64,000 nucleotides of DNA from contig JBAZTA010000002.1 in the NCBI GenBank assembly GCA_041662125.1, positions 76,154 through 140,153 of the forward strand, read 5' to 3'. The position numbers were made by a program, and so were the translations under genes. Shown here in pieces: positions 6,001-27,000 of this stretch. The notes under the pieces are model-generated. The model was not told where the DNA came from. It did not search any database and was given only the letters and a program-made list of their open reading frames with translations. This DNA is from Candidatus Omnitrophota bacterium. Its GTDB lineage: Bacteria; Omnitrophota; Gorgyraeia; Gygaellales; Profunditerraquicolaceae. Positions within the stretch are counted from its first letter, which is position 1; each line of letters begins with the position of its first letter.

Positions 6001-9000
6001 TAAATTATTGTTTGAGCAAGATATTCAACAGAAGGCAAAATTGTATGCCGAGCTTGCCGGCTGTTATGCGGGATTCGGGCTTTTTAGAAAAGCCAAAGAC
6101 GCGATGATGGAATCTCTCAGTTTGACTCCTGAACAAAAAATGAGGAGCAGGTATCTTTCGGAGTATGCTCATTTCGAAGTACATCGCAGCCTCGTAGAAG
6201 AGCAAAAGAAATTTGCCGTCGCTAATGGGATCATGCATCTTTTACAGGCGATCACTTCCTGGGAGAACAACCTGGGGGCGCGCAGTCTTTTGAGAAGGCT
6301 TTGTAACTTCCTCGCTGATTCATATAGGATCAAAGCAGAGGCTCTTGAGAAGGTGCAGCAGCAAGATGGCGTTGAGAGGGCCAAGATGATCAGGGAAAAG
6401 TATGTTCTTGCGGAAACAAGCTATCGGGGAAGCATAAAATATTTCCCTCCCCAGGTAAAAATAGACGATGAATCTTTTAAACGCTCTGTGTCCCGGTTAA
6501 AAACAAGGTCAGAAGCTTTGGAATTAGAACGTCAGAGGCTGGAGTTTCAACTGGTAAGCTTGCAATTAAAGATCACGCAGTTGAAGCTGCATCAAGAGCA
6601 TACGCAGGGTTATTATGTGACGATAGGAGGCTTGTATGAAGAGATAGCTAAATTGTATAGCGCGTATGGGTTTCATCATCGGGCAGAAGTTTATTTAAGA
6701 AGGGCATTGAGATCGTATGAGGCCGTAAGCCAGCATTTTGGCGGGATACTGCCTACTGAAACCGTCAGAAGTATGGCTGATATCTATGTGGTGGAATATA
6801 TGTTTGAAGCCGCGCTTAAGATATACGCGCGTTTGCTGGATCCGAAGTCGGCATTTGCGGTTTTTTCTCCCAGACACGATGATTTACAGATAAGAGAAGA
6901 TTTCTATAAAGGGAAATATCTCCATGATTTTGAATCGGTCTTGCCGCACTATATTCAATGTTCGATGTTGCTTGCCAATGAGCCTGCCGAGGCGATAGCA
7001 GCGATGGAAGCAAAGACTAATGCGTGGTTGTTGTTTGCCGGTGAAGATATAAAAAGATGGGCAAAAGAAAGCCGCCTCTACGCGGATACTGAGGGCGTCT
7101 TATGGGTTAAAGAAGCGGATGCGGCAGCGCGGTTACTGGATGTTATCGTGCGTTATCAAAAAACGGGCAGTTCGTCTTCTGCGTTAGGCTTGTCTCAGGA
7201 AGTAAATAGTGTTGACGCTTTTTCTGGCCTTGCTCGAGGAAAGAAAGATGATCTGCGCCTGGGGCCTGAAGAACGCTGGTTGCTGCGCTGGATGAGTTCC
7301 TTTGATAAAGATGTTCTTGTTTCGCTTGTTGCAGAAGCTTCCCGGCAGGATATCCTGACCGCAGGGCAGCAAAAAGTTTTATTATGCGCTCTTGAAAAAG
7401 AGGCCGTATCTCCGCGCGCATTAGCTGTAGTGCTGGGGAAAGACCCATCTTCGGTCTCCCGGGGCTTAGTCGGCAGAAAAGATGCTGCTTTTGAAAAAGA
7501 AGGGGCGTATACAGGGATATGGGATCGTATCCCTGAACAGGATAAGGAGCACATTCTCGCAAATTTGTATGAAAAAATTGCGTTTCAGCCTTTGGTTTAT
7601 GCTTTAACCCCTTTTGCATTTGTCGAACCAAGGATTATCAGCGTTATAGAATATTTCATTTTTCTGGCGTTATCGCAAGGGGAATTTGAGGAACTTGCGG
7701 CTAACCTGACAGGATACCTGTATGTTTTTGAGAAGAATGGTCGATTTACTCTATCCGCTGTGGCGCAGGAATTGAAAATGAGCCGGGGTAATCTTCAGAA
7801 ATTTTTGCGGCGTCCAGTAAGAATTGAAGAATTACGGACTGTTCTTGATAAATCTCTCTATAATGCGTGGCTCCAAGCTTTGACGAACCACTATGCTCCT
7901 GTGAGCCTGAAAGTTTTATGCGGGCAGTTCTCGGATGAGCAGATAACAGGTATTGTTGTCAGGGCGGGAAAAGAATTCTTAAACGAATTGCTTGCAAAGA
8001 GAGAGCAAGAATACATTGCCAAAAAAGGAGAGGCTCGAGAAATGAAGGATATGTCAGCTGAGGACTTGAAATGTCTTATTACGGCAAGGCTGCTTGAAAA
8101 TACTGCATATAAAAAACTAGCGCAACGTTTTGGCGTGGCAGAAATAACTATTTTGAGATTTTTTGAAGGGCGTATTGAAGATCCCCGTAGCATTGAAGGG
8201 GCGATACCGCGGTTACATGCCTGGTTAATACAGAGGGAAGAAGTTACTGATGGTAAGAATAACGATCGGGTATTGCCTTCGCAAGATGATATCCCTCAAA
8301 CAAAGGTTGTTTTAGGCGAACTAACGGTTTTAGATGATGATACAAGGCAGGAAAATGACTTGCCTGTGGCGAGCGAAGAAGAGAGCGTTCGGCAAAACGA
8401 AAATGAGGGAGATCCATTGAAGCATATTCAGGACATACTTGAGCGGCTTGTATGGCTGCGGCAGCCGATGTTCCTCTCGTATCGTGAAAAGAGAGGATTT
8501 ATTGACCAGGAATTGGCAGGTATTGGGCGTTCAATACTGTGGATAATCCAAAATTTTCCGCAAACAACTCAAGAAGCTTCGTTTAAGCCTTTATGGAAAA
8601 AGGTCATCCAGGAGTTATACATTTTTAAAGATAAAGGGCTTGGTTACTCTTTACCTAATCTGGTCGCGCCTATTTTAAGCAGGAACAATAATAAGGCGAG
8701 CAGTTCTGTTTTGACGGTTTCTTCTGTGGGGCAGTTTCAGGAGAATAACGGCGCGCATAAAGCGCTTGCCGAATCTCTGCAAATCACTAAGAGATTTTAT
8801 GAATATGCTGGTTATTCCCTCTGGCACAAAACCGAGCAGCGTTTTGAAGATCGTCTTGTTGTAAATGTGGCTTATGGTTCGTCTCGCAACAGCCTTCTGC
8901 CGTCAAATAATTGCGATTTCCGTAAGCCAATCGCCGAAGATGTTATTTTGACCACAACTCGATGCGCGAACTGTATGGGAATAATAGGAGCAGGCTGGGG

Positions 9001-12000
9001 CAATAATAGGCTTTGTGGTTTTATACGCCACCAGCATCTTTATTCTCCGTTAGAGAAATCTTACCTGCCCCCTGAGGATGACAGCGTGTATGCTTTGAGC
9101 AAATTAGAAAGAATAAAAATATATTTATCTAAAATGGCCTCGAATGGAAAGATGCGTTTAGTGTTTTCATACCGCCAGGATGTGCAGAAGTATGTGGCAA
9201 TGATCCGCGATAGTTTGCTTGCGGCATATCATAACTTTGATTTACGGTTATTATTGATCGATCGTCAAATAGGCTGGGATATGGATTCCAATATCATTGC
9301 AACGGTTGATGGTATAGGGGTGCGCAGCTGGAGCATGCAAGGCCAGGAGCGCGGCCTGGTGGTCCCGTGGGATGAAATGGATTTATTGCTTGATCAATAT
9401 GCGTATGCCGTGGTCGATATGCGAGGGCAAGTGCTTGCTGCTAAAAAAGTATCGTCACCTCTTCTTGATTCGAAAGTTGAAACTAAGATGCAGAAGAGCA
9501 AGAAGTCATGGCATGATGCTGTTTTTGGCAGGAAAAAGCTTTACGTTTTCTTATCTGCTATTTTATCCCTCGCCGTTATTACGGCATATTTTCAACCTAT
9601 TATTCGCAGTAAATCATTCCAGGAAAAAACCCAAATACAGAATACAAAAACCTACCAAGGCTTCGATGTATATCAGTGGATTGAAAAATTAGCCAATGGC
9701 AATTCACAGGAAAAAGAATGGGCGCCGTACGCCATCAGTAAGACCTATGGACAAGAGTCTTTGGGGTTGCTGGTGAAAATGCTGCGGCAGAAAGATCTGT
9801 CTGATGATACTCTTGAGCGGGTTTCGCGCGTATTCTTCCTGGTCGGGCCTGATTCTATTCATATTCTGCTTAAAGAAGCTGCAAAGAAAGATCCGCGTAT
9901 GCGCGCATATGCTTATCGCATTATTGGGGCTATCGGTAAATACGGGTATCCTGAATTATTCCGGCATCTACAGGATTACCGATTAAAACCCCATGCTCTC
10001 CGAATGCTCTTGTTGATTGGCCAGCAAGAAGGGTTTACGCGTCAAGAGCTCAAGAAAGCAATTAAGGTGATCACGCATATACAAAAGAAGAATGTTTATC
10101 CGCAAGCAGTAGTTCTTTGTCTTATTAAATCCTATACGGATGATCCATCGATGATTCCGGTTATTGATAAAATTCTTAAGAAAGACATTGTTTTCCTTTC
10201 TGCGCTTCGATTAGCCTTCACTCAGCAGGATAGGGGCGCTTTTGAGTATTTGTTAAGATCCTGGAACCGTACGAATAGTGCCCGTAATCACTTTATATTT
10301 GTTGTTTTAGAAGAAAAACGCGCATTTTCAGTCCCATTCTTGGAAGCCAAACTCAACGAATATTTGCTGAACAAGCCAATTGATGCCCAGAAAGAAGAAT
10401 ATATGCTGCTTTTAGAAAAACTCGATCCGGGCGCGCATTTTAATTTTGAGCTTAAGGAAAAAGCCAAATTAACAGAAGATACGATAAAGAGGTTCTTGCG
10501 GAATATTTTCGCGCCTTCTTCCTCGCCTGTTCAGGCGGCTGAAGAAAATTCATTGAAAAAAGATTTGGGAGGAACAAGAGATTTCGCAACTGCCGTTGGG
10601 ATGATCAAGCATGAGGACAATCATCGCGCTGAAGAGTATTTGCATAAATTGCTGGAGATGGTGAGAATAAACAAATGTTTAACCTCGGAAGAACAGGCTC
10701 TCGTCAAAGATATTATTGAGAGTCCGCATGTCTTGAAAATGCTGCTTGATAGTAATAATGCCCGCTGGCTTGAGAAAAGTGCGATCAGAGGGAAACCGGA
10801 AAGTAAAGCGATCGTAGGGCTGCTCGACCGGCAAGATAACAGAGTCATCATTGCTTTAGATAAAATGTTAAGGCCGCAGAAGGATGGAGGCATCCAAGAG
10901 GGCTCTGTGCTTTTACGCAAAAGCATTTTTAAATTCATTCTTGCTGTTGCTTTTGACGGCAGTCAGCATATCCGTTACGTTGAAAGGAAAGCTTTGCCGC
11001 TGTATTATAAACAAATTAAAGCGCTCGGGCATATTGTCATTCTTGGACAGGTGCCGCAAAGCGGGGAATTAAAGATAGGCAGGAAATGGGCAAGGCTTGA
11101 TGCGTCCCTGTATGGGTTATCGAACTATTTATTAGAAATGAATAACGGTATCCCGGTAAGAATGTTTTTCTTTAAGACCCATACCGCTCTTGAATTTCTC
11201 CCGGCCGTCAATAATAAAACCGGTGGTATTGAAGTAGTTCATATGGGGCAGATATTCCGGGAAGTATTTAAAAAATTATCTGATGTTACCCTGCTGACAT
11301 ATTTAGGAAGCCTGGGAGACTTAAGTATAGGGGGCGGACGCCCGCACAGCGATGGGACGGGGTATGAACCTTCCTGGTCGCGATTTTATTATCATCCTTA
11401 TGAAAAAGTAGAAGTATTGGTAAAAGACGGTTTAGTCTGGAGGCTTACTTCTTTGGAGAGTGATCTGGACCGCGCGTATCTGAGGATCATGCATGTGCCG
11501 ACGAAGCGCATTACAACAACGGCCATAAAATTAAGCCATAAAGATGTATCCCGCCTCAGTGATGAGTATCAGATCCATAATTATCCTTTGGATCAAGCGG
11601 GAAAATTAAATATTGATTCCCAGACGGTAATGAATTTCGGGAAAAGCCGCGCTTTCCATCGGCTTACGATATATGACATCCGCAAGAATAAAAACGGAAA
11701 AGTCTTTGCGGTGGCGGCAAAGACTTTGTCAGGTGTTGATAAAAGGCTTTATATCATTTACGCGCTGCCGGATTATCCTTTCAGGTTCAATAGTGAGCAG
11801 ATCTTAGCTGTCTTTAAGATGCACCTTGCTGGAGTCCTTGAGGCGTTGCCGTTCAATGCTTTTGTCCTGGAAACGATAATCCACAAAGATCAACGTTTGA
11901 GCGTGGGAGAGTATCTGTGGCGTTTAAAACATATTGCGAACAGTATTCCCGTAAACTTAGCCCATGCAGTTGCCAGGATGATGTATGTGGCAGGAAAACC

Positions 12001-15000
12001 TGCTTTTGTGTTTCTCTGCGGCAAAGAAGGCCGGGATATTACTGATAGAAAAGGTGCCCAGGTGATCCTGGATGTACGAGCAGGATTGGGCAAAGAAGTG
12101 CAGGCTGTTGCCTTGCCCGAGGTAAGCAGATTTCTGGAAACCAGTAATGAGTTGGCTGTTCCTTTTAAGGGAGAACGGGCGAATGCCTTCGCTGAATTTG
12201 AAGAATTTATACAGGAAGAAACAGAAATTTTAAAAGAAAAGATTAAAACGTTTATCTGGGGTAAAAAAACAAACAAGATCAACAAAGAGGTCGTTTGGTT
12301 TCAGCATCGGATGTATAAGATCGCGACGATGCTTATTAATCATTTTGATAAATCAGGGTCGGTACTGGTTCAGTTGTTCCTGGACCAGTATGTCCCGGCG
12401 GATAAAGAGCAGGGCGGGTTAGAAGAAGCTATGCGGCAGTTTGGTTTAACCCATTGGATAATTAGATTTGATAATGGTTCTCAGAGGCCAACGTATGTTA
12501 CCCATGCGTTACGGCATCAGGTGAAGGAGTATAGCGAAGAAATAATAAGTTTTTGCAGGAGGAATTTGAAAGCGTATATGCCGCCTATTGGTGTTCCGCA
12601 GGCCCGCAATAATATTCTAACTTCAGAGGATCAAGCGTTCTTAAAGCATTTAGGGGTGGTTAATAATCAATCCAGGGGAAGTAATCCACCCGCAGCTGCT
12701 CGCGCGTCTTCGGCTGTTTCCGTTACTGCCGTGAACTTTCCATTATGCGGATACGTTGAGGAAGGCAGGATTTTGGCGGAAAAACGCCGTAGGGATATCG
12801 TCAACCCCCTGACTGCCGCACTTGACCTCTTAGAAAAAAGAAAAGTCTGGGGTAATCTTTTGCCGGCAGGGGCTAAGTTTAATTTTACCTACGCGTTTTC
12901 CAGAGAAAGCGATATTTTTGCCTTAAGCGCGCAATTCAAGAATGTGATAGTTTTGCCTTTAGAGGAACGCCATAATGCCAGCTTACTTTCATTTATTATT
13001 CGTCATTTTATTCACGGGAAATTCATCCGTGAGGAAATCTCTCTTGATGATAAAAAATCAAAAGTATATCGAGGAGACTTGATTTTTCTGTTGAAACTTC
13101 CTGATCAGGAGCGCGAAAATATCATGGCTTCTTTGCGGCGCTATGATTACCCGAATATGGATAGCTTTTTAGAATTAAAGGATGCTTTGGAACAAGAAGA
13201 CCTTTTACGGTTATTCGCGCTTGTATATAACGGGGGAGATATAAAGAATGGATGTGCTTTATCTATTGGTAGGAAGTTTCAGGCGCGTATATTTCAGTCG
13301 GTCATCCCGAAACTGACCAAACTTGGTGTTTCAAGGGGGAGGGTGTTGAGCCTTATCCTGGGCCTGGCGCGTGTGGCTCAGACAACTGAAGAATTCTGGA
13401 TGCTTTTAGAAGGGTTAGCCTCGATCCCCGATTGGGTAATATGTATCCCTGAAGGGAAAAAAGCTGACTTGGGTGTCTTTGTTACAAAAATGGACCAGCT
13501 GCTTTCAGAAGGAATATGGGCAATTCATTATAATCAAGCGGTATGTTGTAAAACACTCGTTGATTCGGTAAAGGAAACCCTCGAACATTTTTGGGAATTC
13601 AAAGATTTTCAGGATGAAGCGCCTAATTATCATGCAAAGAGCCGGGAGAACTATTACGCAGACCACCTGTGTATGTTAAAAGGGTTCTTGGGCCAGATTT
13701 CCGGGGTGCATAAGTTTACTTTTGTATTTAAGGATACCATTGATGTGCTTTATTTTAAGGACCATCCTTTAGGCTTGGAAGCAGTGAACCCTGTGTATAT
13801 CGCCTGCGGCGATAAAAAAGAATGCGACGGACAGGGATGCGGCTGTAAAACGATATTTGAATTTAAATATTCAGCCCGTATGGAACATCTTGCCCGGCAA
13901 ATAACCGGTTATAAGACGAGAGTTTCAGTTTTTGGGCTGATCAGCAGCGCGCAGGAAAAGTTTATGAGACAGGAGAAATTAACCAGGGATGAAGAGATAT
14001 TAAGGCAGATTAAGAATATCGTATTTTTTGCTGAGTATGACGGAGGCGGGTTGATTGCAAAACTTAATCATTTTGTTAGGCAGTATTATCACAAACGAGA
14101 CCCGTTCAAAGATAATAAGCGCTTGTGCGAGCGTAAATCCTGGAATGAGGGCGGCTTTACCGTCCGTTTCACCTTGGGAGAATTTAAGATGTTCCTTAAA
14201 GAAAATGAAGTGCCTGCTTCTCATTTGAACTGGGCTTTTGACCGGCTCGGACAGCATTATCGTAATAAAGGATTTGATGTTTATATCAGTATCAGTAACC
14301 CCAAAGGGAATGAAGAAGAGAATGCTTCTTGCAAGGAAAATATCTCTCGGCGCAGGACAAGCTCGCCAATAAGTAACCAGGGGACTAACGAGCAATCAGT
14401 TTCGCTGAAAAAGGAGCCAATAACCGTTAAGTACGGAGAAAGGATATTAGTAGGACGCATGTGGCGAAGGGTGGTTACGCTGCGTTTTGGCCATGGCCGC
14501 GTAGGGCTCTTGGATGATATCTTGCAGGCTATCGGTGATAAAACTTTTGTGGGGTGGTTAGAATATTTGCATAATAAGCGGCCGAAAGAATTAAGTGTTT
14601 CATTGGAGACGGTAGAAAAAGATACTATGCGCGCGATCATTAAGGAGTTAAAGCGCGTTGAAGATTGGCAGGACGCCCAGCAAGACAGCCTGCCGCGGCA
14701 AAACTGGCTGATGAGGTTTACTATCCCGCATCAACCCGCGCAATTGTTGCGGATCACCCGGTTGCTTCGGGAGAGGGGCATTAATATCCAATCATTTATG
14801 ACGCCCACCTTTTCCCAATATCACCAGAATATGCGTTTTATTATGCAGTTAGGGATCCCTGGAAACTGCCCTTCTGACGTAGAGTCTGTTGTCCAAGAAC
14901 TCAAGAAACATCTTAGTGATATCCCCGATTTATCGATGCATCAGGCTGAACTGGTCGACTGGCTGGTGGAATATTTAACTAAAAAAATACCGGTTAATTT

Positions 15001-18000
15001 TAAAGAGGAAACTGTGCGCCGTTTCCGTGAGGCATTAAAGATCATAACCAGGCGTCACCTGGGTGAATCGAGAAAGAACAAAAAAGATTCATATATGATG
15101 CATCCGCTTGATGTGGCGATAATCGCGGCAAACCAATTTGGTATTCGCGACGAGGGTTTATTAGAGATGATTATTTTGGCGGCGCTGCTGCATGACACTA
15201 TCGAAGACGGCGATATCAGTGACGCAGAATTGCGCAAGAGATTTGGTGATGATATTTATGCGATTGTCAACTTGCTCACCAAACGCAAAGTTAACGGTAA
15301 AGCTGACGAAATCGCGTATCTGCGTCAACTCTGTGCTGCTGTTGGAGAATTAGGCTTTATTGCCAGGTTGATCAAGATCGCCGACCGTATTCATAATCTG
15401 CAAACTCTGGCTGGTGTTGAACATGATAAAGATTTTCATCAGAAAACCATGGTTTCGACACTTGCTGTTTTTATACCCGAGGTAATTGATACGCTTGATT
15501 TTTATGCTCTCGCTGACAAAGAGCATGAGCGCGTATTACGGCAGGCTAGAGGAGTTTTCGCGCAGCAGGTTATTGATACGGCAATAGAATTACATTTCTT
15601 GAATCGAAAAGGCGAAGTGAGCTTTAAGAATTTTAAAGAGTCCAGATTAAACGGCGAAACGGGAAAACGTCCGCGTTTAATCGGGAGGGATTTAAAGAAT
15701 CTGTTTAAACGTATGCAGCAATTGGCCTCTTCAATCAAGGCAAGTTCTAGCATCAGCGCAAATCCTGTTGCCTCCCCCATTACAGTTGAAGAAGTCAGGC
15801 GCCTGGTGCGGGAGCATTTGTTGCCGGTTACCGGCGCGCGGCATACCTTAAGCCATGGAGATGATGTTTCTGACCTTGCCGGGTATTTAGCTCAGCATTT
15901 AGGGTTAGCGGAGTGGGAATCGATGATACGGATTGCCAGCCAGCTGCATGATGTCGAGAAGATACATAATAGAGAAGTATTGATGCTGGTTAATTTCCCT
16001 GGCGATTTATCCATGAATCAGCGGTTATTTGTACAGAAATATCATACTACCCCTCCGTTTATGGGAGTTAAGGCAATGGGAATAGAATTAGCGCCTTTTG
16101 TAGAAACTCTGATCGAGTTTCATCACCGCCCTCAGATGTGTAATGGGAATAATGCTATAAATACGGCTGCGCTTTGCCTTTCGTTGGCAGATCTGATCTC
16201 AGCGATGAGCGCTCCCCGGCCTTATTTTTATGTGGGAGGCAATATTGAAGATAGTAACAGTATTCCTGCTTGGCTGCGTGGTTTCTTATCCGCCAAAAAT
16301 ATTGTATTGGAAGCGCGCGTCTGGGAAGCGATCGAAGATATGGTAGTTGATAAAAGAGCCCGGATCCAGCAGATCAACGGGCTGAAGGCTGATGCGGTCG
16401 CTGATACCGCTAAGAGTTGGTTTGTTTGCGGGCAGACCCAAGAGTGCCTTGACGCCCTTGCTGAACAGATCCAAGAGTCTCGTAATCAGCAGAGAATAAA
16501 CCGTTTGTTGACTATACTTGTTGATCCAGTTGTGTCTGCGGTTTTAAGTGATGGAGAAATGAGGGCGCTCTTTGCGAAAGTTTTGTCAGCAGCACATTCA
16601 AAAGGGGAGTTAGTAGTAAATCATATGAGTGTTTTAGCTGCAATCCCCGCAATTCCCCGCCAATTTAAACAAATCTATTCAGAGATCATTTCTCGTAGCT
16701 CCTCCTCACCGCTGGCGTATTTAACAGCGGCAAAAAAATTATTTACTATACCACTTACTATTTTATTTGTAATTCCTTTGACGCTGATTTTTATAATAGC
16801 GAGTATTTTACACGAGTATGTTCACCTTTTAATGGCTAAGATATTTGGCCTGGAGACAGGAAAGGTGAGATTATTTGTGGAAGATTCGAGTTCCAATGTA
16901 GAAGTCATGGTGCAGGGAGCAGAAAACTGGAAACTTGTTTTTATATATTTGGCTGGTCCAGCTATGGATTTATTTTTAGGGGCAGTCTTTTTATTCTTGA
17001 TCTACTTGAACGGTTTTTCCTGGGGATGGCTAAAGATTTATGTTAATGTTGCACTTTTATCAGCAGCGGGGCTTCAAATACAGTCAGTAATTAATAGTCT
17101 TAACCCCAAATATAGCACAGATGAAGGCCTCAAGAGCGACGGTTATTTAGCTTTGGAGTGTATAAGAAATATTAAGGCAGGCAATAAATTTTACGATGGT
17201 GATAATTTTGATAGCTCCTCGCCGCTGACTCATTTCAATTTATCTGAGTTTGCGGATAAGCTATTAAGAAGAATGCGTGGGAAATATATACGAGGGTATA
17301 GGTATTTCTATGAGATTGCAGAAGATAGCCGTAAATGCGGTGCTTTGTGGGTCAATGATTGTAGGGTGGATGCGAATATTGGTAAGGGTGTATATGATTT
17401 TGTTTTTCCCCACCCCTTTGACCAAAATCTTGTAGTAAGGATAAGCAAATCAATTGATCTCTGGCGCCCAGTTTCAAGGAAAAAAGAATTCCAGAGGTTC
17501 CAGCAGTTGGCACGGCTCGGCATCGGGCCGCAAGCCTTCGCCTGGTGGATGCGTGATCAATACTCTTTTATGCTTGTAGAAAGAGTACAGGGCAATTCGC
17601 TGGATAAAATTGTTCAGAAACGGCTTCTTACTCAAGGAGAAATTAACTTTCTTAAGAGACTTTTGGATGTTTTGATTGAAAATAGGATTTATATAAGCGA
17701 CTTTAAACCTGCTAACATTATGTTTACTTCAGAGAAGGCTGTTATCTGTGACGCAATGTGCGCTGAAAACGCCCTTGCAGATGATCGCGCTGCACTCGCA
17801 GAGCGCTATGTTCGTATGATGCGTCCGGATCCATGGATTGACGTTGATCCTGATTTCGAATTAGAGAGGTATTTGCTTTCTTCTTCGCCGCTGGGTGAAG
17901 AAAATAGAACCATCCCCTTTTCTAAAATTGCCTCTTTGAGAGAAAAGGGTTATATCAAGAGAGAAGAAGAAGTCAGATTTCTTGCGGCACAATTAAATTC

Positions 18001-21000
18001 TAAAGATATGGCCACAAGAGAATCTGCAGGCCGCGCCATAATAGATGAGGTACTTGGAGAAGAACATAGCAATTTGCGCCTCAGGGCTTTTAAGATATTA
18101 CTCCCCATTATTGTTCCAAGAGTAATGAAAGCAGGCGCGAGGCTGCCTTGCTGGGAACAGGTCGATCTGCATACTCACACGGTAGAGTCTGACGGTTATT
18201 CTAATCCGGCAGCGGCTATCCTGGAGGCATTTGAGCGCGGTATGAGCGGATTGGCCATTACCGACCATAATACCTTCCCCGAAAACAATGAAGCTTGCAG
18301 GGCGGTTAAAATGCTTAACGATCATCTGCGTTCGTTCGGAAAAATCTTTAACCTTATTCCAGGCTTAGAGATAACCACTTATTTTGAAGGGGTAGTGGTG
18401 CATCTTTTAGTTTATCTGCCAGGGTATTACCGACGCCGTAAAGAATTATTGAAGTTTGCCTCGGCGAAGGCGCTTTTTGATAAGTTTTTACTTCACGATA
18501 GAGAACAAGTAAAGCAAACCAGGAATTTAATGGAAGCGATAAATGAGGCGTATCCTGATTTACAGATGCAGTGGCAGGATGTAGTGGCGGGTAGCCGCGG
18601 GAAAATCTACAAAATTGAGGCTACCAACGCGTTGTTTCGGAAATATCCTGATAAATTTAAAGAATACGGTAAAGCCAAAGATCTCTGGCATAAATGGCTG
18701 CCGTCAGAATTAAGGAAGAAAACAAAGGTAAACGTGGACTATTACGCCTCTTTTGAAGAAGTGATCGCATTCGTCGCGCACACCGGCTCAAAGCTTGCTA
18801 TTGCCCATCCGAATGAAATTCTAAGCGAAGAAAACAAGCTAAACAAAAAGAAAACATTTCCAAGGCTGCTTGAGCATTTGGCCGAATTAGCTAAACGGGA
18901 GATTATCAATCCGAAATCTTTGTTAGGCGTTGCCTATTACAGCGAGAAACTCACGCTTAAGAATTCGTTGCCTGATAAGCAGGTGCGTGGATATGTGTAC
19001 TATCACTACAAAAAAATAGTAAGCCGTTATCCATTCCTCAAGGGCCTATTTTTGCTTTTGCCGGAATCAGACAGCCATGGAAAGCTTTCTACTCCTGCCG
19101 GCAGGGGCAGAGATTATCCGCGTAACAGGCAGGTATACACAGGCAAGGTAATGCAGAGGGTATACCTGCCTGTTCCGACGCGGCTTGCATCTTCAGCGTT
19201 GAAAATTAAAGATATGTTTTTCTCTTTGAAGGGCGCAATACAGTTGACAGAATGGGATGATAATAGAACCGGCCTAGAAAATTATTTAGGCAAGGTTGTA
19301 TTTCCAACCGGCAGATTACATGAGGTGCGTAGTTTAATAGAAGAAAATGTTCCGCTGATTAAGATTGCGGTGGAAGGCACACATTCTCAAGAGCCGATTC
19401 CCTGGCAGGTATTTAACACCTCATTTAGAAAAATTGGAAAGAGCTTCAGCCGTGCGCTCGGATGGCCTCTGCGCCGTAAGATTAATCAATTAGCTCATTC
19501 TAAGATCAACCAGCCGTTATATGTGCTTGATTGGGGAGCCGGCAATCTAAGGGCTGCTGTAAGATTAGGGAAAATGCTCAAAGCAAGAAATGCCTATATC
19601 ATCGGCTTTGGGCAAGATTATGACACGCGACTGATTAAATGTCCTTATGATAACGTAGTGTATATTATTGATTCTGCGCCGAATTTGTTTAGCCGCATAG
19701 AAAAACTTCTGCCCGCAGGCCATACGCTTGATGTAGTTTACAGCTATCTCGGTCTGGGGCATCTGTTATGGAACGATAGAGCCGGTTTCATAGATTATCT
19801 TGAGAAATTAGCAGGATTGCTTTCACCCCATGGAGTGATTGTATTTGATGTATATGGTCAAGAACGAGATGTTTTTCTACCCTGGCGAACCCGCTTGGAG
19901 AAAACGTTTAGGCATTTTGAAGTTTCTGGTGAAGTAAAAAGAATTGTTAATGGGAAGGAATCTGAATATCGAGTGGCATTTTTTGAAAAGGATAGTGCCG
20001 CCGCTGCGCTGGATACAATAGGTCATAATACTGTTAAAGAATCAACAAGCCTTAAGATGTTAAGGTCTCAAGTAAAAGATTCCTTGCCTGTTGGAATACA
20101 AGTAATAGAAAAAAAATACAATGGCGCGAGTTTCCTTGTATCAACATTGAAAGTATTCTTTTCGGCTTTGCGAGGCGGGCACGTAAAGTATATTGTGAGC
20201 ATTTTCGCATTAATGTTAATCTTGCAGGTAAAATGCCCTTCCATTCTGCCTCAAGTGAACAAAAGAGGCGAATTAAGAGAGATAGTGATAAGGCAAGGTG
20301 GCTGGAATTTTGATTTGGCTATTTTTATAACTGGGGTAATTCTTACCTTGCTAAATTTTATGTCAGGTTTAGGGGCGAATATTCTGCCTTTTACTTCCCC
20401 TTATTTGCTGGTGTGGGTACTTAATAAATATTTCAATAAAAAACAAAGAGATAGGCTTCTTATACATGAGTGGTTGCACGCGTATCAAATAATCTTGATA
20501 TATCATGCGGGACGTAATGTGAAAAGATTCATTACTACACATATGGCTGCACTTGAAAACAACACAGCACAATTCGAGTCTGCATTGTTAAGAGACGGTG
20601 TATATATTCCTGAAGTATTACAAAAGTTTGAGAAAGAAATGAAGTCTCTGATTAGGATTTTAAGCGGTCCTGAATATAATCTTGCGACTTCTAAAACCCG
20701 TGCCCCTCATTCCGATAATACAAACCCTGTTTCCTCGCCGCTGACAGTAACAGACGGTTTTGAGGAAATCATTATCCCAGCAGACAGACAAATTCGGGCG
20801 CATATACGCCGGCAGAGAGCAGATGATACAAATGCCGACAAGCCAGTGGTAATTTCTGTCCATGGTTTAGGCTGCGTTATTGACCCAAGAAAGCTTCTTC
20901 GGTATTCTTTTCAGGAATGGCTGGGCTGGAGGCGTCCGTATTACTGGCAGAACCTTACTCATGAACAAGGTTTATTGAAGCGTGCGGCAGAAGAGTTTCA

Positions 21001-24000
21001 CGTTATTGCCTTTGAACATTTTGTGCCTACTTGGGAAAATGCCTTGTTAACGTTTGAAGAAAGGGCTGCGTATCTTACAGATGTCCATCAATACGTTTTA
21101 GATGAATTTAGCATAAAGGGGAAAAGTCTACCGCAGATATGGATGGTTGAGAGTTACGGCGCTGCTGTATTTGTTGAGTGGCTGTTGAAGAATGAGGCTG
21201 TATTAGGCCATAGCGATGGATTGGGCATCGCTCAGATATGTTACATTAATCCTGTTTTTGCTTTGCAAGAGAAAAAACAAAAGTCATTGCGTATAGTGTA
21301 TCCTTTGCATCGTTATATGGCTTGGTTACACGACAAAAAAACTTTTATGCTGGAACAGGTCTATCAAAGGTCTGCCGGGATAAAACCTTATCATGTTATT
21401 TTATCCGAGCGTCTGGAAAACGTAAGCAAGCAAATTACCCTTCCTGAGTCACGAGTGATCGCGCTCTCAGAAGATACTGTCGCTGATTTCAACGCATTAC
21501 CTGATTACTTAGCGCGAAATATCGAATACGTTACCGGAGGAGATCATTACGCTGCCATGACTAATCCTGCGGTGGTAAAAATGGCGCTTAGACATATCGG
21601 CTCTGCCGCCTCGCCGCTGGCGCTTCAGGATAAGCTACCTCTTAAGTCTAGTTATAGCAGTTCGTCAGGAATAAATGGTGGGAATAATATGCAAAATCTT
21701 CCTGAAAAGATTCTTTTAGGAAGACGAGAAGAAATTTTACGCGACATTAGGAGCACACCACTTAAAAAATATATTGGCCATCTTTGGGAGGCCGCCCTAA
21801 GAACCTGGCATGTAAGAATAGAATTTCTCCTTCGTGGAACGAAAGGTTATATATGTCCTTTTAGAATCCTACAACATGCTTTTTACTGGGATGATGGAGC
21901 TGAGATGGTTCTGAGAAGAATGGAAACTTTGGCAACTTTACTTTGTTTATCTGGAGAAGATGCTGAAAAATATATCGAATTTAGAAGATATTATGGTTTT
22001 AACCACGATCTTTTGACTTTGGAAACTACACTCGAAGATTCTTTGGTAGAAATAAAGGGGCTGCAGGATGTATACAAAATGCAGATAAAAGACAAGGATG
22101 GGGTTCAGACTTTATTGTTAGTGGGGATAAATTGCGAGCTTAAAAAAGATAGATATTTTTATTTCACTTGCGCTGATATTGGGTTGAGTGAAGAAAAGAT
22201 ATATCATTTATTCGATTTTTGGAAAGGAAAATATTTAGGAAAAATAGATGGGAAGCAAGGTCAAGCAAACGTTTTAGTAAAGCCATCAGGGTCTTTCTAC
22301 CTTCTCATCAAAGAAGCGATAGAAGATGCTCCGCAGGTGATAGCCAGTTCCAGGGAATTAACCGGGGGAATTCAGGATATTGAAAGCATCCATTGTGACA
22401 AAAACCAACGAGTTCTAAATATACGCTTTAAACAAATAAGAAATCAGAACGGGAGGATTTATTTATATCTACCTGTTGGAATAGAGGTGGCACATTTAGA
22501 GTTTAAAAATATTAAAGGGTGCTATCAGGAATGGAAACAAGGAGAGATACTGCCGATTGTTGTCATTGGGGTAGGAAAGAGAGCGAGAATAACATTACGC
22601 TATACGAATGAGCCAGATTTGGGGGCTATTATTCAACAAAAAATTATGGATATTAATAGTAGATTTGGTGATTTTATAAGAATAAAACAATTTTCAGGGT
22701 TTGATTTCAACCTGAAAAGAGATTGTATGTTTATCAAGAAGTGGCCGCAGGGGCTGCTTGGTGAAGTTCTCGAGCTTTTATCGAGCAGACATACAGATAT
22801 AGACAATATCGCAAAGCAAATCGTGTGGGGATATATTGATCGAATGCTTTCAGGGGAGGACTTATCTGATTTTGAAAAACAGGTGTACGATTCTCAGGTT
22901 TTCGAACATAAGCTAAATAAACAAGCGCGCATTTGGTTAATTACTCACATCAATGCGAAGAGGGCATTAATCGGAATTAAAGAAATATATCCTTGTTCAG
23001 GAGAGATAGCCATGGTTGACGATTTTGGGGGATTTTCAATTCATAGCAGAAGAGAACATTACACTCATTTTTCAATTTGCAGCGCCTATATTCATACTGA
23101 TTTGAATACTAAGCCGGAATGGGATGATATCGAAATGGAGAAATTGATTCCCTGGGACCAAGAGGATGACCGGTATGTGGGGTATGTATTAGTAACTGAT
23201 CACAATAAAGAAGAACAAGGCAAGGCTACAGTTAAATTTGTGTTTAAAACTTCTGACTGCAGAAGATACAATTGGGATATTCATAATGTCAAAATAGACT
23301 TTTATGAATATGTAGAATGGGCGAGTATTCCAAACGGCGATTTAATCCTTGATGTAATACCTAAAAAAATCAGTAGAAACTTGAAGAATCATGAAGCGGA
23401 TCCTCCATTAGATTTGGTACAAACCAGCAGCGAGAAGCGAGCACCGAAAGGCGAACATGCCTCCTCGCCGCTAGAAAAAGTTGAAGCAAGAAATGCAAAA
23501 ATTCCTTCAGTGCATATTGACTTTGAACATAGGACTTGGCGCGTATTTCTAAGAGAGCGGGTACCTCCTGGCCTTGTATGGTTGTGTGTCCAGAACGCTG
23601 ATTTTGGAGGATATGATCTAAGGAATTGCGATTTGTGGAGGGTATATATTAATCCCGTTCTTGAGATAAGAAATTGGCCGAAAATTATCTCAATGGCCCG
23701 TAAAGCCGCTATAGCAGCGGGGGTGCCTTTTGCGTACAAATATCCTTGTTCAATAGAAACTGTGTCAGCCGAAGAAGATGTGTTAGTGAGAGAATTTCTT
23801 AGTGACCAGAGACAAACAAAGATAGTTTTCTATTTTGTGTCTGAAGAGGATGCTTTGAAGTTTATTCAGCGTTTGCAGAAGCAGGATGGCTACAGCGAGA
23901 ATGAGGCCCGGGGGCAGGGTCCTGTCTATAATACCCCGGCGTTAGACCGGCTAGTTTCTTACGGTAAAGGATTTAAAGAAGAGAGATGGAGATTTGAAAA

Positions 24001-27000
24001 GATTATTGCTTGGCGCACAATAGAAAATGCATTTAATGCGATATATAACAGGAAGGACTTGAAGATTGCATCGTTGTGGACTGCCGTAAAAGTAGCCGTT
24101 AATAGATTAACAGGCAGAACAGAGGGGGCGCTGGCAAAACATCTTCCTACTGCAGCAAAGACAATAGATGAAGGCGCCTTGGAAGCATTGTTTGCTTTGA
24201 AAAAGCCCGCTGATATAAATTCTCTTCCTGAGCAATTCGGCCCTGTAAAAGCAGCACTTGAGTTTTTAAGAAATAACCTGCCGCAGGATGTTGAGATTAT
24301 AATCGCCGGCGGTCCGGTGCGCGATTTATTGCTGGGGTTACGTTTTAACAGAGGCGATAACGAAGCGGGGATTAAGGACGTGGATGTAATTTTAAGAAGC
24401 CCTTTAAGGAACGATCGGGAGTTAAGAGCGCTTAAGAGAGAACTTAGCAGAAAAATAGAAAGTGGGCAAGTCAGCGGCGCAGAATTAGTAAATTCCCACA
24501 TCAAGTTTAACGGCTTATATATAGATATACTTAACGTAACTATGGATAAGAAGCATGTTATCGCGTACCAAGGAAAGCCGATGGATGCGCGTATTTCTAT
24601 AAATATATTAGGCATATCTTCGCGCGGAAGATTTATTTATACCCCGCAGGCATTGCGCGATTTGCAGGAGGGGGTAATCAGGTTTGTAGGCCCAGACGGA
24701 CGGGAGATTACCGGCACAAAGGCGCTTTCTGTGCTGATGATTATCCGCGGGTTGATACTGAGGCATCAGTTTGGTTTTGCATTTACTCCATATGCGGCAA
24801 GGATTGCCGCGCGCTATGCTTATGGCAAGGTTTTAGTAAAAGATATGGAATTTAGGGAGGCTACTGATATTTTGCGTGAAATCAAACTCTTCGAACTCGT
24901 CCGCTATACCCGCAGGGTTTATTATTTGAATGGATTACTGCATTCCTTATACAAGAAGGCGTTGGATCCGCTATCGGTTACGAGGGACTTGGAGGCGATG
25001 GGCTTAGTTGGAATATTGCGGCGGTACGTTGATTTCTCCGGCCTTGAAATTCAGAGGATGTCTGGAGTTTCCAGCTCCGCCGCCTCGCCGCTGGTTTTAC
25101 GCATCAATCTTCTCGATGCGTTCAGGAAACAAGCATTTGGGCCGCAAGGCGGTATGGTTGGTATCGCTTCTTGGTTTGGAGATACATTTCATGTGGTAAC
25201 TAATGAAATTTTACATCCTCTGGCTGCTCAAATTGCGTATGAGATAGGCACGCGCGCGCATTCCGATAGACAGTTAGTATATTATGTTAACGCCGGGCAG
25301 GAAAAAGATATAGAGTTTTTGATAAACACTATCGCAAAATACATGGGGATTCATAAATATAATGGATTTGAAATTCACGTCGTAGTTACTAATGTTGATC
25401 CTCGTGGCATAGATAAAGCGAATGCAACATTGCAAAGGCTCAAAGAATGCCATCGTAATCTATTTACATTGGATTATATTGTTTTACCGTTGAATAACAC
25501 ATGTGATAAAAACGTAAATAAGTTCACTACAACCGTAAGAAGTATAGGTGGCTTTAATGGGATTATGTGTAATGTCGGTGGTGATATATGGGCACATGGC
25601 ATTGTTGCTCAGCTGCCTGGCATGCTTAGGCCTGGAGGATGGCTTCAGGTAGATGCCGACCAAAGATTTCTCGCCAAGATGCTTTGGTATTCTGGAAACA
25701 AAGGTGATTTCAGAAAGACGATTATATCCAAAGGGAATACGTTGTATTTAAGGTACCGTGACAATAACGATATTCTTAGCGAGTCTGAGAAAATCGGCGC
25801 TTCGCCGCTGGCGCAAAGACGCGTTGAGAACATTTTACCGGTCAGACGACAAGGGAAAGAGTCCGTATTAATTATCATCCTTGACGACTTTGTAATAGAC
25901 AGAGAAAGGCCTTATCATGTCCCTCACGGCATATTAATAGAAAATTTGTTAATTAGATATTGCGGCAATAATAAGCGTATACAGCTGAAACGGGTGAACT
26001 CCGAGATCTCATTGAATAAAACCATTTCTGTTTCGACATTGCAGCAAATAGAAAATATTGTAAGTGGTAATTCTTACAAATATATACTGGTGAATATATC
26101 CGACTATATGACTTTTGATAATAGCGTTTATTATGATATCCATAAAATAAATGGAATATTGCCTTTTGAATTTGTATTTGAACTGGGAAAAAAAGGCGTG
26201 TTTTTTGTAATGTGCGCGGGAAACGGGAGGCAGAATAGTCCGGGCGGCTATAGATATTACAAGCATGACAGATTGGAAAATGTGATACCCGTGGCTGCTG
26301 CAGAAATAAGCAAGACTGGATATACGAAGGCTTATTACAGTTGCTTTGGTCCTGATGTTATGTTTTGCGCAGATGGCAGCGATAGCCAGAATGCGCAAGG
26401 TACTTGTATCGCGGCGGCAAGAATATCCTTAAAGCTGTCTTCGATATTCACCCGTTGGTCTGTTAGCGAAAAAGAGGGACTGGGAATTATTGAAAGAGAA
26501 TGTATCGCCATGCCAAATGATTTTTATTTTAGACATGGCTTATTAGGCGTCGGATATGTAGAAGCCGCCTCATCGCTGGCGCCAGAAGAACGGATAAATC
26601 AACTACTCTATAGCAAGGGTATAGAAACTATTTTCGAGAAGCATAAATCAAAAAGCCCAGCATTAAATATCGAAGAATGGAAGCGAAATTTAGCAAACTT
26701 CTTGACACTTGGTTTTAAGCCGATGACTGAAATGTTTGATGGCATAGATCAGCGCAGTGATAAGGAGAAGATAACGTTCCTGCGGCAGATGATACAAGAA
26801 ATGAAAGAAGGACAATGCCGCTGCAGGCAGTTAGACGGTTTAGAATTAGAACATCTTTTTTTGCTGGAGCAACCAATTGATATAGACGCGGTATTGAGCG
26901 TACATGGTTATCTCTTAGGTAAAAGAATAATGTTTTTAACAGATCATGAGTATTTCGAGAAATATCGCAAGTTTTATGAGGAAGATGAATATATGCGTGA

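Follow-up and report, generated by a model that had tools for sequence, protein, structure and literature searches.

Two predicted PHP phosphoesterase cassettes in a giant multi-enzyme gene of Candidatus Omnitrophota, probably derived from one ancient duplication

Introduction

How a single gene came to carry the same enzyme module twice, and whether both copies are still likely to be enzymes, are the questions raised by a 64,000 nt stretch of DNA from a Candidatus Omnitrophota bacterium (NCBI GenBank assembly GCA_041662125.1, contig JBAZTA010000002.1, positions 76,154 to 140,153 of the forward strand). This whole stretch is hereafter called the window, and its own numbering is used throughout. 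The window lies within one giant open reading frame (ORF), in which two PHP-phosphoesterase modules are found 20 kb apart. From sequence comparison and structural modelling, we consider it likely that the two are paralogous, catalytically intact, whole-protein PHP cassettes of a long form, held in one giant multi-enzyme gene and derived from one ancient duplication that was cut at a recurring junction peptide.

Giant multi-enzyme ORFs of the Omnitrophota carry methyltransferase (MTase), HAD, HD and kinase domains (doi 10.64898/2026.06.07.730766; doi 10.1101/2023.11.21.568195). Sixty-five per cent of these giant ORFs repeat a Pfam domain within the polypeptide, which has been ascribed to old, diverged duplication (doi 10.64898/2026.06.07.730766), and the lack of cleavage-point information blocks the structural dissection of giant proteins (West-Roberts et al. 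2023, doi 10.1101/2023.11.21.568195). Neither paper speaks of PHP modules, of junction or linker motifs, of gene-fusion boundaries, of recombination or of cassette reshuffling, and our literature search found no paper joining Omnitrophota and polyproteins. The PHP paralogy adds one more case to the known repeated-Pfam pattern in giant genes and is in itself expected from current work on them; the informative part is its anatomy. A first-pass annotation of the window, made from the letters alone, was essentially right in its interpretation of the pair, and is corrected here on three points: the module boundaries, a pairwise ratio of non-synonymous to synonymous substitution rates (dN/dS) that is not estimable, and an MTase-like segment that was not confirmed.

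Homology and extent of the two PHP cassettes

The frame that contains both modules occupies the entire window:

nt 2..64000, + strand: giant-gene fragment, 21,333 codons with zero stops; both gene ends lie outside the window

A six-frame stop count of the window found 848–1,855 stops in each of the five other frames. Amino acid (aa) i of the giant ORF corresponds to nt 3i-1..3i+1.

BLASTP comparison of the intervals first proposed for the modules (nt 17981–19228, copy 1, and nt 38111–39385, copy 2) returned 183 identities in 416 positions (44%), 61% positives and E = 6e-108. The first-pass annotation had staked its claim of paralogy on a significant pairwise alignment, and the value obtained is far beyond chance. 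Its claim of co-linearity from an N-terminal helix to a C-terminal tail likewise stood, with the copies aligned over about 405 aa. All of the motifs it had quoted were found in frame on the + strand: SAGRAIIDEVLGE at aa 6008 (copy 1) and SAARAIIEEVLGA at aa 12720 (copy 2), DLHTHT at aa 6055 and 12763, AITDH at aa 6085 and 12793, LLPESDSH at aa 6352 and 13060, and ASPM at aa 13128. In the PHP hidden Markov model scan that had been proposed, both modules scored above the PF02811 gathering threshold of 26.4 bits, copy 1 with 31.8 and copy 2 with 28.2 bits; when scanned inside a 5,000-aa slice, copy 2 reached 25.0 bits, slightly under this cut-off.

The proposed intervals are homologous, but the true homology is slightly larger, and begins about 100 nt further upstream. 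It starts at SSSPL (nt 17879–17893, aa 5960–5964) in copy 1 and at GSSPM (nt 38027–38041, aa 12676–12680) in copy 2, upstream of which the sequences are unrelated, and it ends at ASSAL (nt 19187–19201, aa 6396–6400) and AASAL (nt 39308–39322, aa 13103–13107), respectively. Copy 2 had been said to end at the ASPM linker; ASPM does follow, but AASAL closes the cassette 20 aa earlier. Self-comparison of the window ORF was run in 300-aa tiles, as a whole-protein self-BLAST gave the identity match alone, and it detected no duplication in the 6.7 kaa between the two PHP copies. The features of cassette 1 are as follows:

nt 17879..19201, + strand: PHP cassette 1, aa 5960–6400; 44% identical to cassette 2 by BLASTP, Pfam PHP 31.8 bits, AlphaFold2 (AF2) model
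nt 17879..17893, + strand: junction SSSPL opening cassette 1, codons TCT TCT TCG CCG CTG; the homology of the upstream sequence to the related ORF L001 (described below) stops here
nt 17897..18142, + strand: four-helix HEAT-like N-terminal extension, including SAGRAIIDEVLGE; AF2 helices with a predicted local distance difference test score (pLDDT) above 90
nt 18170..18178, + strand: H-x-H motif, His6057 and His6059, equivalent to RNase AM His13 and His15 by alignment to 7ug9 and column check
nt 18815..18817, + strand: Glu6272 in HPNE, at the position of RNase AM Arg201 (7ug9 alignment, AHPNE vs AHPGR)
nt 19070..19078, + strand: D-x-H motif, Asp6357 and His6359, within LLPESDSH, equivalent to RNase AM Asp255 and His257
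nt 19187..19201, + strand: variant junction ASSAL closing cassette 1; free-standing homologs have their stop codons aligned to this point

Cassette 1 is thus laid out as a junction, a HEAT-like helical N-terminus, a distorted (beta/alpha)7 PHP barrel carrying a helical insertion domain, and a variant junction. Cassette 2 has the same architecture:

nt 38027..39322, + strand: PHP cassette 2, aa 12676–13107; its ortholog in L001 is 82–83% identical in aa sequence
nt 38027..38041, + strand: junction GSSPM opening cassette 2; GSSPL stands at the equivalent place in the L001 ortholog
nt 38294..38302, + strand: H-x-H motif, His12765 and His12767 (motif and column check)
nt 39194..39202, + strand: D-x-H motif, Asp13065 and His13067 (motif and column check)
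nt 39308..39322, + strand: variant junction AASAL closing cassette 2; in the L001 ortholog an intact AASPL stands here and joins straight onto a HAD cassette
nt 39380..39394, + strand: junction SASPM after a 20-aa spacer, opening a ThiG-like cassette whose ThiG Pfam match lies 118 aa downstream

Since the C-terminal tail shared by the two copies holds the D-x-H motif, what had been described as a conserved tail contains the last catalytic motif. In cassette 1, the assignment of this motif is supported by an invariant column and by a profile alignment to 3e0f that runs through gSDsHgk.

Word-indexed protein searches gave almost no close match to the cassettes, and the family became visible only when 1.84 billion representative proteins were scanned exhaustively with HMMER: 18 sequences reached E <= 1e-30 and 62 reached E <= 1e-10. 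Some members are free-standing long-form proteins of 430–570 aa (P0017, P0018, P0019, P0022, P0024, P0025 and P0005), and free-standing genes were located at L082 6126–7604 (492 aa), L083 953–2308 (451 aa) and L002 1749–3464 (P0021, 571 aa). The P0005 gene (489 aa) has opposite-strand genes on its flanks. The other members are modules inside proteins of 700–7,800 aa. When the family is aligned, the free-standing proteins have their start codons at the SSPL/SSPM of the window cassettes and their stop codons at ASSAL/AASAL, from which it follows that each module is a complete protein. The HEAT-like N-terminal extension (AF2 helices at residues 6–22, 28–37, 43–56 and 60–87) is kept in every long-form member and is absent from classical TrpH/RNase AM proteins; the PHP matches in the PDB begin only downstream of it. 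Both L002 and L040, more distant PHP-bearing loci, are labelled Candidatus Omnitrophota. A separate hypothesis, in which an operon conserved around PHP had fused into the giant gene, was rejected, as the neighbours of free-standing PHP genes match no other module of the window.

Fold, metal site and enzyme class

An AF2 model of copy 1, built from a 14-sequence family alignment, reached a pLDDT of 90.5 and a predicted template modelling (TM) score of 0.89; an earlier run with a three-sequence alignment had been poor (pLDDT 63.8, weak fold search). The model consists of four N-terminal helices, a PHP barrel and a helical insertion domain, and is disordered at residues 1–7 and 436–449, which are both junctions. 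The top five Foldseek matches were all TrpH-type PHP enzymes with a probability of 1.00, and included 3e0f/3o0f (TM 0.72, normalized to the target), 2yb1/Cv1693 (0.69, normalized likewise) and Vibrio cholerae RNase AM 9etk (0.65), as well as 7ug9. By sequence, the best solved relatives are Escherichia coli RNase AM 7ug9 (E = 7.5e-11) and BAD_1165 3e0f; the alignment of the family profile to the latter covers the complete catalytic domain up to and including the final GSDxHGK..G.G motif. These matches place both copies, as far as sequence and modelled fold can tell, in the TrpH/YciV branch of the PHP superfamily, as a rare long-form subfamily.

The metal ligands of RNase AM are His13, Asp20, His45, Glu72, His83, His198, Asp255 and His257; its Arg201 contacts a sulfate in the crystal, a scissile-phosphate contact, and Arg107, Arg110 and Arg141 bind the 5'-phosphate (PMC9410882). 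Nine positions were checked, namely these eight ligands and His15 of H-x-H, and all nine are occupied by metal ligands in copy 1, in copy 2 and in the L001 ortholog. At the Arg201 position, both copies and 15 of the 16 core family members have Glu (HP[NS]E vs HPGR). Arg107 and Arg110 stand opposite Val and Thr in copy 1 in a HMMER alignment that is poor over the insertion domain; this domain contains one invariant Arg (aa 6199). The scores of the two copies against the NCBIfam equivalog models were 46.4 and 48.6 bits for RNase RNM (NF047791, cut-off 375), and 37.5 and 41.2 bits for 3',5'-nucleoside bisphosphate phosphatase (NF041577, cut-off 400). Both copies are thus predicted to be intact three-metal phosphoesterases that lie outside the RNase AM and 3',5'-bisphosphate (pAp) phosphatase equivalogs. 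Each cassette would fold autonomously and hydrolyse a phosphoester bond through attack by a metal-activated water, as in RNase AM and Cv1693. The substrate probably differs from those of the characterized relatives, given that the phosphate-contact Arg201 is Glu and that the 5'-phosphate arginine pocket is not recognizably conserved.

Comparison with the known enzymes makes the differences concrete. RNase AM of E. coli and V. cholerae (YciV/TrpH; 7ug9, 9etk; NF047791) has the PHP (beta/alpha)7 barrel, the helical insertion domain and the nine equivalent three-metal ligands in common with the cassettes, whereas the cassettes are ~150 aa longer, carry the HEAT-like extension and Glu for Arg201, and are embedded in a giant ORF. 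Cv1693 of Chromobacterium violaceum (2yb1, NF041577) resembles them in its fold (TM 0.69) and N-terminal metal motifs, but the cassettes have HP[NS]E for HPGR and additional N- and C-terminal elements. The nearest solved structure, BAD_1165 of Bifidobacterium adolescentis (3e0f/3o0f; Foldseek E = 4e-12, TM 0.72), is just 22–23% identical and lacks the HEAT-like extension; it is uncharacterized, and hence offers no substrate assignment. The cassettes define a rare, uncharacterized PHP branch with an altered phosphate-contact residue, and represent a concrete target for enzymology.

An embedded PHP cassette in another giant protein (P0034 aa 2385–2739) is without most of the metal ligands, which suggests a pseudoenzyme. 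The loss of most ligands in P0034 indicates that their retention in giant proteins is not automatic.

Age of the probable duplication and selection on the copies

The nearest DNA relative of the window is L001 (CAZPNW010000152.1), a 16.2-kb fully open ORF from an independent metagenome-assembled genome labelled 'uncultured Planctomycetales', with 72–85% aa identity. The L001 PHP cassette is 82–83% identical to copy 2 in aa sequence and just 42–43% identical to copy 1; being far closer to one copy than to the other, it places the duplication before the split between the window and L001. An ortholog of PHP copy 1 was not found in the 16.2-kb L001 sequence examined. Between copy 1 and copy 2, identity is 44% at the aa level and 52% at the nt level, dN is about 0.45–0.55, identity at third codon positions is 35% and synonymous divergence (dS) is saturated, in agreement with the first-pass annotation, which had taken the moderate identity of the copies as the mark of an old duplication.

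The dN/dS of the copy pair, which the first-pass annotation had called for, was computed and is not estimable because dS is saturated: the NG86 and YN00 methods fail and maximum likelihood returns a dS of ~16. It was replaced by a comparison of copy 2 with its L001 ortholog and by Tajima relative-rate tests. Copy 2 and the ortholog differ by a dN of 0.11 and a dS of 0.50–0.62, giving a dN/dS of 0.18–0.23. The relative-rate tests with four outgroups revealed no asymmetry between copy 1 and copy 2 (p = 0.20–0.75). Ten other family members have 33 invariant columns in common, of which 31 are retained by copy 1 and 32 by copy 2. The proposal that both copies are under purifying selection is therefore upheld, with a copy 2 dN/dS of ~0.2, equal rates, 9/9 ligands and 31–32 of 33 invariant columns as the evidence.

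In a neighbour-joining tree, copy 1 grouped with copy 2 and the L001 ortholog with 68% bootstrap support, and this clade was sister to the free-standing proteins P0018 and P0019, which are 35–39% identical to the copies. With 44% identity, the copies are each other's nearest relatives; every other sequence is at 39% or less. The duplication probably occurred within this lineage. Most likely, one ancient duplication of the cassette took place inside this gene lineage and was cut at the junction peptide, after which both copies would have evolved at equal rates under purifying selection beside unrelated neighbours. Equal rates together with purifying selection imply non-redundant roles, such as different local partners or substrates.

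Junction peptides and cassette order

The peptide at which the PHP cassettes begin recurs along the giant ORF. The pattern [SA]SP[LMIV] occurs at 31 sites, against ~1.9 expected, and SSSPL is enriched 291-fold. At position -3, which lies outside the search pattern, S or A is present in 24 of the 31 junctions (2.1 bits, vs 0.5 ± 0.14 for random columns). A P-to-A variant, [SA][SA]SA[LMIV], occurs at 11 sites, against 0.41 expected, and closes both PHP cassettes. Together, the two forms amount to 42 sites with a median spacing of 457 aa; examples are found at nt 16703, 17216, 17882, 20732, 29045, 29753, 38030 and 39383. The ASPM at aa 13128 is one of the 31 recurring junctions. No Pfam domain in the window ORF spans a canonical junction, and the HAD, DFP and M50 Pfam domains begin 8, 7 and 26 aa after one, respectively.

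The junctions also have a codon signature. Over aa 1–13200, the junction Ser is TCG in 17 of 24 cases (background 12%) and the Pro is CCG in 19 of 24 (background 35%); over aa 13200–21333, the Ser is TCT in 6 of 7 (background 29%) and the Pro is CCT in 6 of 7 (background 39%). TCG-CCG-CTG thus prevails in the first two thirds of the ORF and TCT-CCT in the last third. This bias exceeds what the protein requires and is compatible with local homogenization or common descent of the junction DNA. At orthologous window and L001 junctions, synonymous sites were not clearly more conserved than background in a count by eye. Rare-codon pausing was considered as a general explanation of the junctions and rejected, as the junctions in the 3' third of the ORF are written with the commonest codons, TCT CCT.

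Comparison with L001 reveals how cassettes have been rearranged at these sites. L001 (1–16220) has 15 junctions against 0.64 expected, and its cassettes are 72–85% identical to window cassettes from aa 5010–13713, in a different order. In terms of window aa, the L001 order is 5010–5588, 11189–11494 (48% identity), 5571–5966, 9586–9686, 10890–11201, 12495–12664, 12674–13108 (PHP copy 2), 9678–9922 (HAD) and 13126–13713 (ThiG). The HAD cassette (window aa 9682–9918) sits between PHP copy 2 and ThiG in L001, and the PHP-to-HAD joint lies inside ~15 nt (GCC GCC TCG CCG CTG) common to the PHP tail and the HAD leader. At another breakpoint, DPDFELERYLLS-[SA]SPL leads into PHP copy 1 in the window and into a different module in L001. 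The breakpoints fall on junction codons, which argues that cassettes moved as units at junctions. The claim of the first-pass annotation that modules have been duplicated and re-contextualized is in keeping with these findings: the flanks of the two copies are unrelated, and the L001 cassette order differs. In each of the other three internal paralog families of the window ORF, just one copy starts at a junction, so that duplication of a cassette at a junction is not universal.

Lineage-specific junction peptides with an S-P core also bracket the PHP cassette in three further large proteins: AASPL...AASPL in P0034, RRSPSG...RRSPSG in P0068 and ASPEW...ASPEW in P0041. Enriched S-P junctions were observed in P0034 (5,093 aa; [SAG]SPL, 24 sites), P0068 (5,573 aa; RRSPSG, 10–12 sites), P0041 (2,966 aa; EGASPEW, seven sites) and P0056 (7,792 aa; [RK]SPSG, three sites).

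The modules of a giant protein appear here as whole proteins whose start and stop codons are replaced by a recurring junction peptide, and the junctions fall in predicted disordered linkers, at Pfam-domain boundaries and at rearrangement breakpoints between two related giant genes. A boundary defined by sequence allows giant proteins to be cut informatically into units; it opens the question of how genes of 60–400 kb grow, and makes processing testable. We regard the junction-peptide and cassette architecture as the part most worth following, and the junction itself may be a processing site, a recombination joint or a mere linker.

Viral polyproteins contain complete functional proteins in one ORF, with short conserved peptides in disordered linkers between them. 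The giant ORF is alike, by analogy only, in that it concatenates whole proteins with short conserved peptides in disordered linkers; it differs in being a cellular gene on a very different scale. To our knowledge, the junction sequence is unlike known viral sites. We tentatively raise the possibility, more doubtful than probable, that the giant gene is a bacterial 'polyprotein' of complete enzyme cassettes joined by a functional S-P junction (here [SA][SA]SP[LMIV], and RRSPSG or EGASPEW in other lineages), which would serve as a cleavage site and/or as a preferred joint for duplication, insertion and reshuffling. On that view, were it correct, the PHP pair would be a visible outcome of a junction-based process, and the junctions would supply the missing information on cleavage points and module boundaries for Omnitrophota-type giant proteins.

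Alternative explanations for the PHP pair

Several observations weigh against an intragenic duplication of two intact enzymes. Copy 1 is without a known ortholog, and hence its constraint is deduced indirectly; the sister-group support is moderate, at 68% neighbour-joining bootstrap from a distance method only; the NCBIfam scores for RNase RNM and 3',5'-bisphosphate phosphatase are far under the equivalog cut-offs; and the replacement of Arg201 by Glu means that the chemistry or the substrate may differ from that of every characterized relative. With regard to origin, the gene could instead have captured two already diverged free-standing PHP paralogs, fused at different times without any intragenic duplication. 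Free-standing long-form PHP genes do exist, the cassettes are clearly mobile, as the different L001 order demonstrates, at least three other lineages have giant proteins that incorporate a PHP cassette, and the clade of copy 1 and copy 2 has the 68% bootstrap already noted. Nevertheless, the copies are each other's closest relatives among the 1.84 billion representatives (44% vs 39% or less), and the type of N-terminal junction and the P-to-A variant of the C-terminal junction are common to both, so that we judge independent capture unlikely and moderately favour intragenic duplication. It is far less probable still that the 'paralogs' are divergent alleles or orthologs of co-assembled strains, brought together in a chimera. 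Metagenome assemblies can be chimeric, and no matching locus was found in GTDB species genomes, JGI/ENA metagenome contigs or IMG/VR, but copies with 44% aa and 52% nt identity are too divergent for assembler collapse or mis-joining, the 63,999 nt are stop-free with in-frame domains throughout, unlike chimeric joins, and the independent assembly L001 contains a similarly uninterrupted ORF with cassettes that are 72–85% identical.

With regard to function, the cassettes might be ordinary orthologs of RNase AM, a 5'-3' exoribonuclease, or of pAp-phosphatase, fused by chance into a large protein. The best NCBIfam, PDB-sequence and fold matches are indeed RNase RNM/AM, Cv1693 and BAD_1165, and the complete trinuclear ligand set is present. 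We consider this improbable, although it deserves some weight, in view of scores about 8-fold under the equivalog cut-offs, an invariant Glu in place of Arg201 (HP[NS]E instead of HPGR), non-basic residues opposite Arg107 and Arg110 in the HMMER alignment, the additional HEAT-like domain at the N-terminus and a C-terminal G..DYP motif of their own. That one or both copies are non-catalytic scaffolds, kept for structure or binding, has a precedent in the degenerate PHP modules of giant proteins, such as that of P0034, which lost most of its ligands. Both window copies, by contrast, have 9/9 ligands and 31–32 of 33 invariant positions, their rates are symmetric and the copy 2 dN/dS is ~0.2, which makes the pseudoenzyme explanation highly unlikely. 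Two intact long-form enzymes from one ancient duplication remain the explanation that we prefer.

The segment after cassette 1

Between cassette 1 and the next SSPL junction lies a segment that the first-pass annotation had called MTase-like:

nt 19202..20731, + strand: unannotated 510 aa (aa 6401–6910), from cassette 1 to the next SSPL junction; no significant profile match

The proposed identity was not confirmed: Pfam, PDB, NCBIfam and hhalign gave no significant match. Pfam yielded no match at E <= 1, PDB sequences yielded none, and the best NCBIfam match had E = 0.094; aligned with the window's own MTase by hhalign, the segment matched over 13 columns with a probability of 7%. A LYVLDWGAGNLRA that resembles motif I of Rossmann/SAM enzymes is located at nt 19517–19555, with a class-I-like pattern of hydrophobic strands alongside YVLDWGAGN. 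A HEWLH (HExxH) motif in a hydrophobic stretch (nt 20465–20479) is reminiscent of the HEYVH of the upstream M50-like module (aa ~5610). The one homolog of the segment that a search returned is P0167, a hypothetical protein of 353 aa without Pfam domains, which has the DWGAGN...GFG...SYLGL.H pattern in common with it. Given YVLDWGAGN and the class-I-like strand pattern, the segment may still be an MTase.

Domain content of the giant ORF

Domains are found in frame throughout the window ORF: FBPase_glpX, HD_4, M50, two copies of PHP, a PrmA-like MTase, HAD, ThiG, PRK, CheR, DFP, Rce1-like and PIG-L Pfam domains. Their approximate aa positions are 1658 (FBPase GlpX), 5013 (HD_4), 5594 (M50-like), 9389 (PrmA-like MTase), 9690 (HAD), 13246 (ThiG-like), 14696 (PRK/uridine kinase), 19289 (CheR MTase), 19506 (CoaB/DFP, two copies), 20121 (Rce1-like CPBP protease) and 20785 (PIG-L deacetylase). 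The ORF thereby chains enzymes that usually exist as separate housekeeping proteins. At least 13 distinct Pfam families are represented, none in more than two copies, and ~85–90% of the ORF is without a Pfam match. GC skew is positive along the entire window, and the ORF listing, which leaves out ORFs running off the window ends, contains just two antisense ORFs of 150 aa or more, both of them short. The window contains no marker genes.

With at least 21,333 aa without a stop, the ORF exceeds the 10 kaa set for a single protein in class 1 of Nielsen & Lui, and its Pfam domains are, as in that class, many and distinct, with none dominant by copy number. It resembles their Omnitrophota 'multi-enzyme metabolic cluster' class (Nielsen & Lui 2026, doi 10.64898/2026.06.07.730766) and the Archaeovorins (West-Roberts et al. 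2023, doi 10.1101/2023.11.21.568195) in having an ORF of >10 kaa, many enzyme Pfam domains and long dark regions. Unlike the Archaeovorin/Dockerin-type giants (doi 10.1101/2023.11.21.568195), the window is without dockerin or TSP3; a Pfam search of these 21 kaa at E <= 1e-3 found no dockerin, TSP3 or cell-wall-degrading domains. Neither the window ORF nor a close relative was found in collections of 5.8 billion proteins and 1.84 billion representatives, and no identical or near-identical locus was found in the GTDB, JGI/ENA and IMG/VR collections named above.

Besides the PHP pair, the tiled self-comparison detected just three small internal paralog families in the 21 kaa. One has three copies without Pfam domains (nt 10847–12100, 47279–48511 and 49142–50101; aa 3616–4033, 15760–16170 and 16381–16700) that are 25–38% identical, two of them being neighbours ~600 aa apart. 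Another is an unannotated unit of 160 aa, present as a pair at nt 25181–25663 and 27155–27637, with 45% identity and 658 aa apart. The third is a tandem DFP/CoaB-like pair (nt 58502–58789 and 59270–59554; 39% identity), the first member of which begins 2 aa after an SSPL junction.

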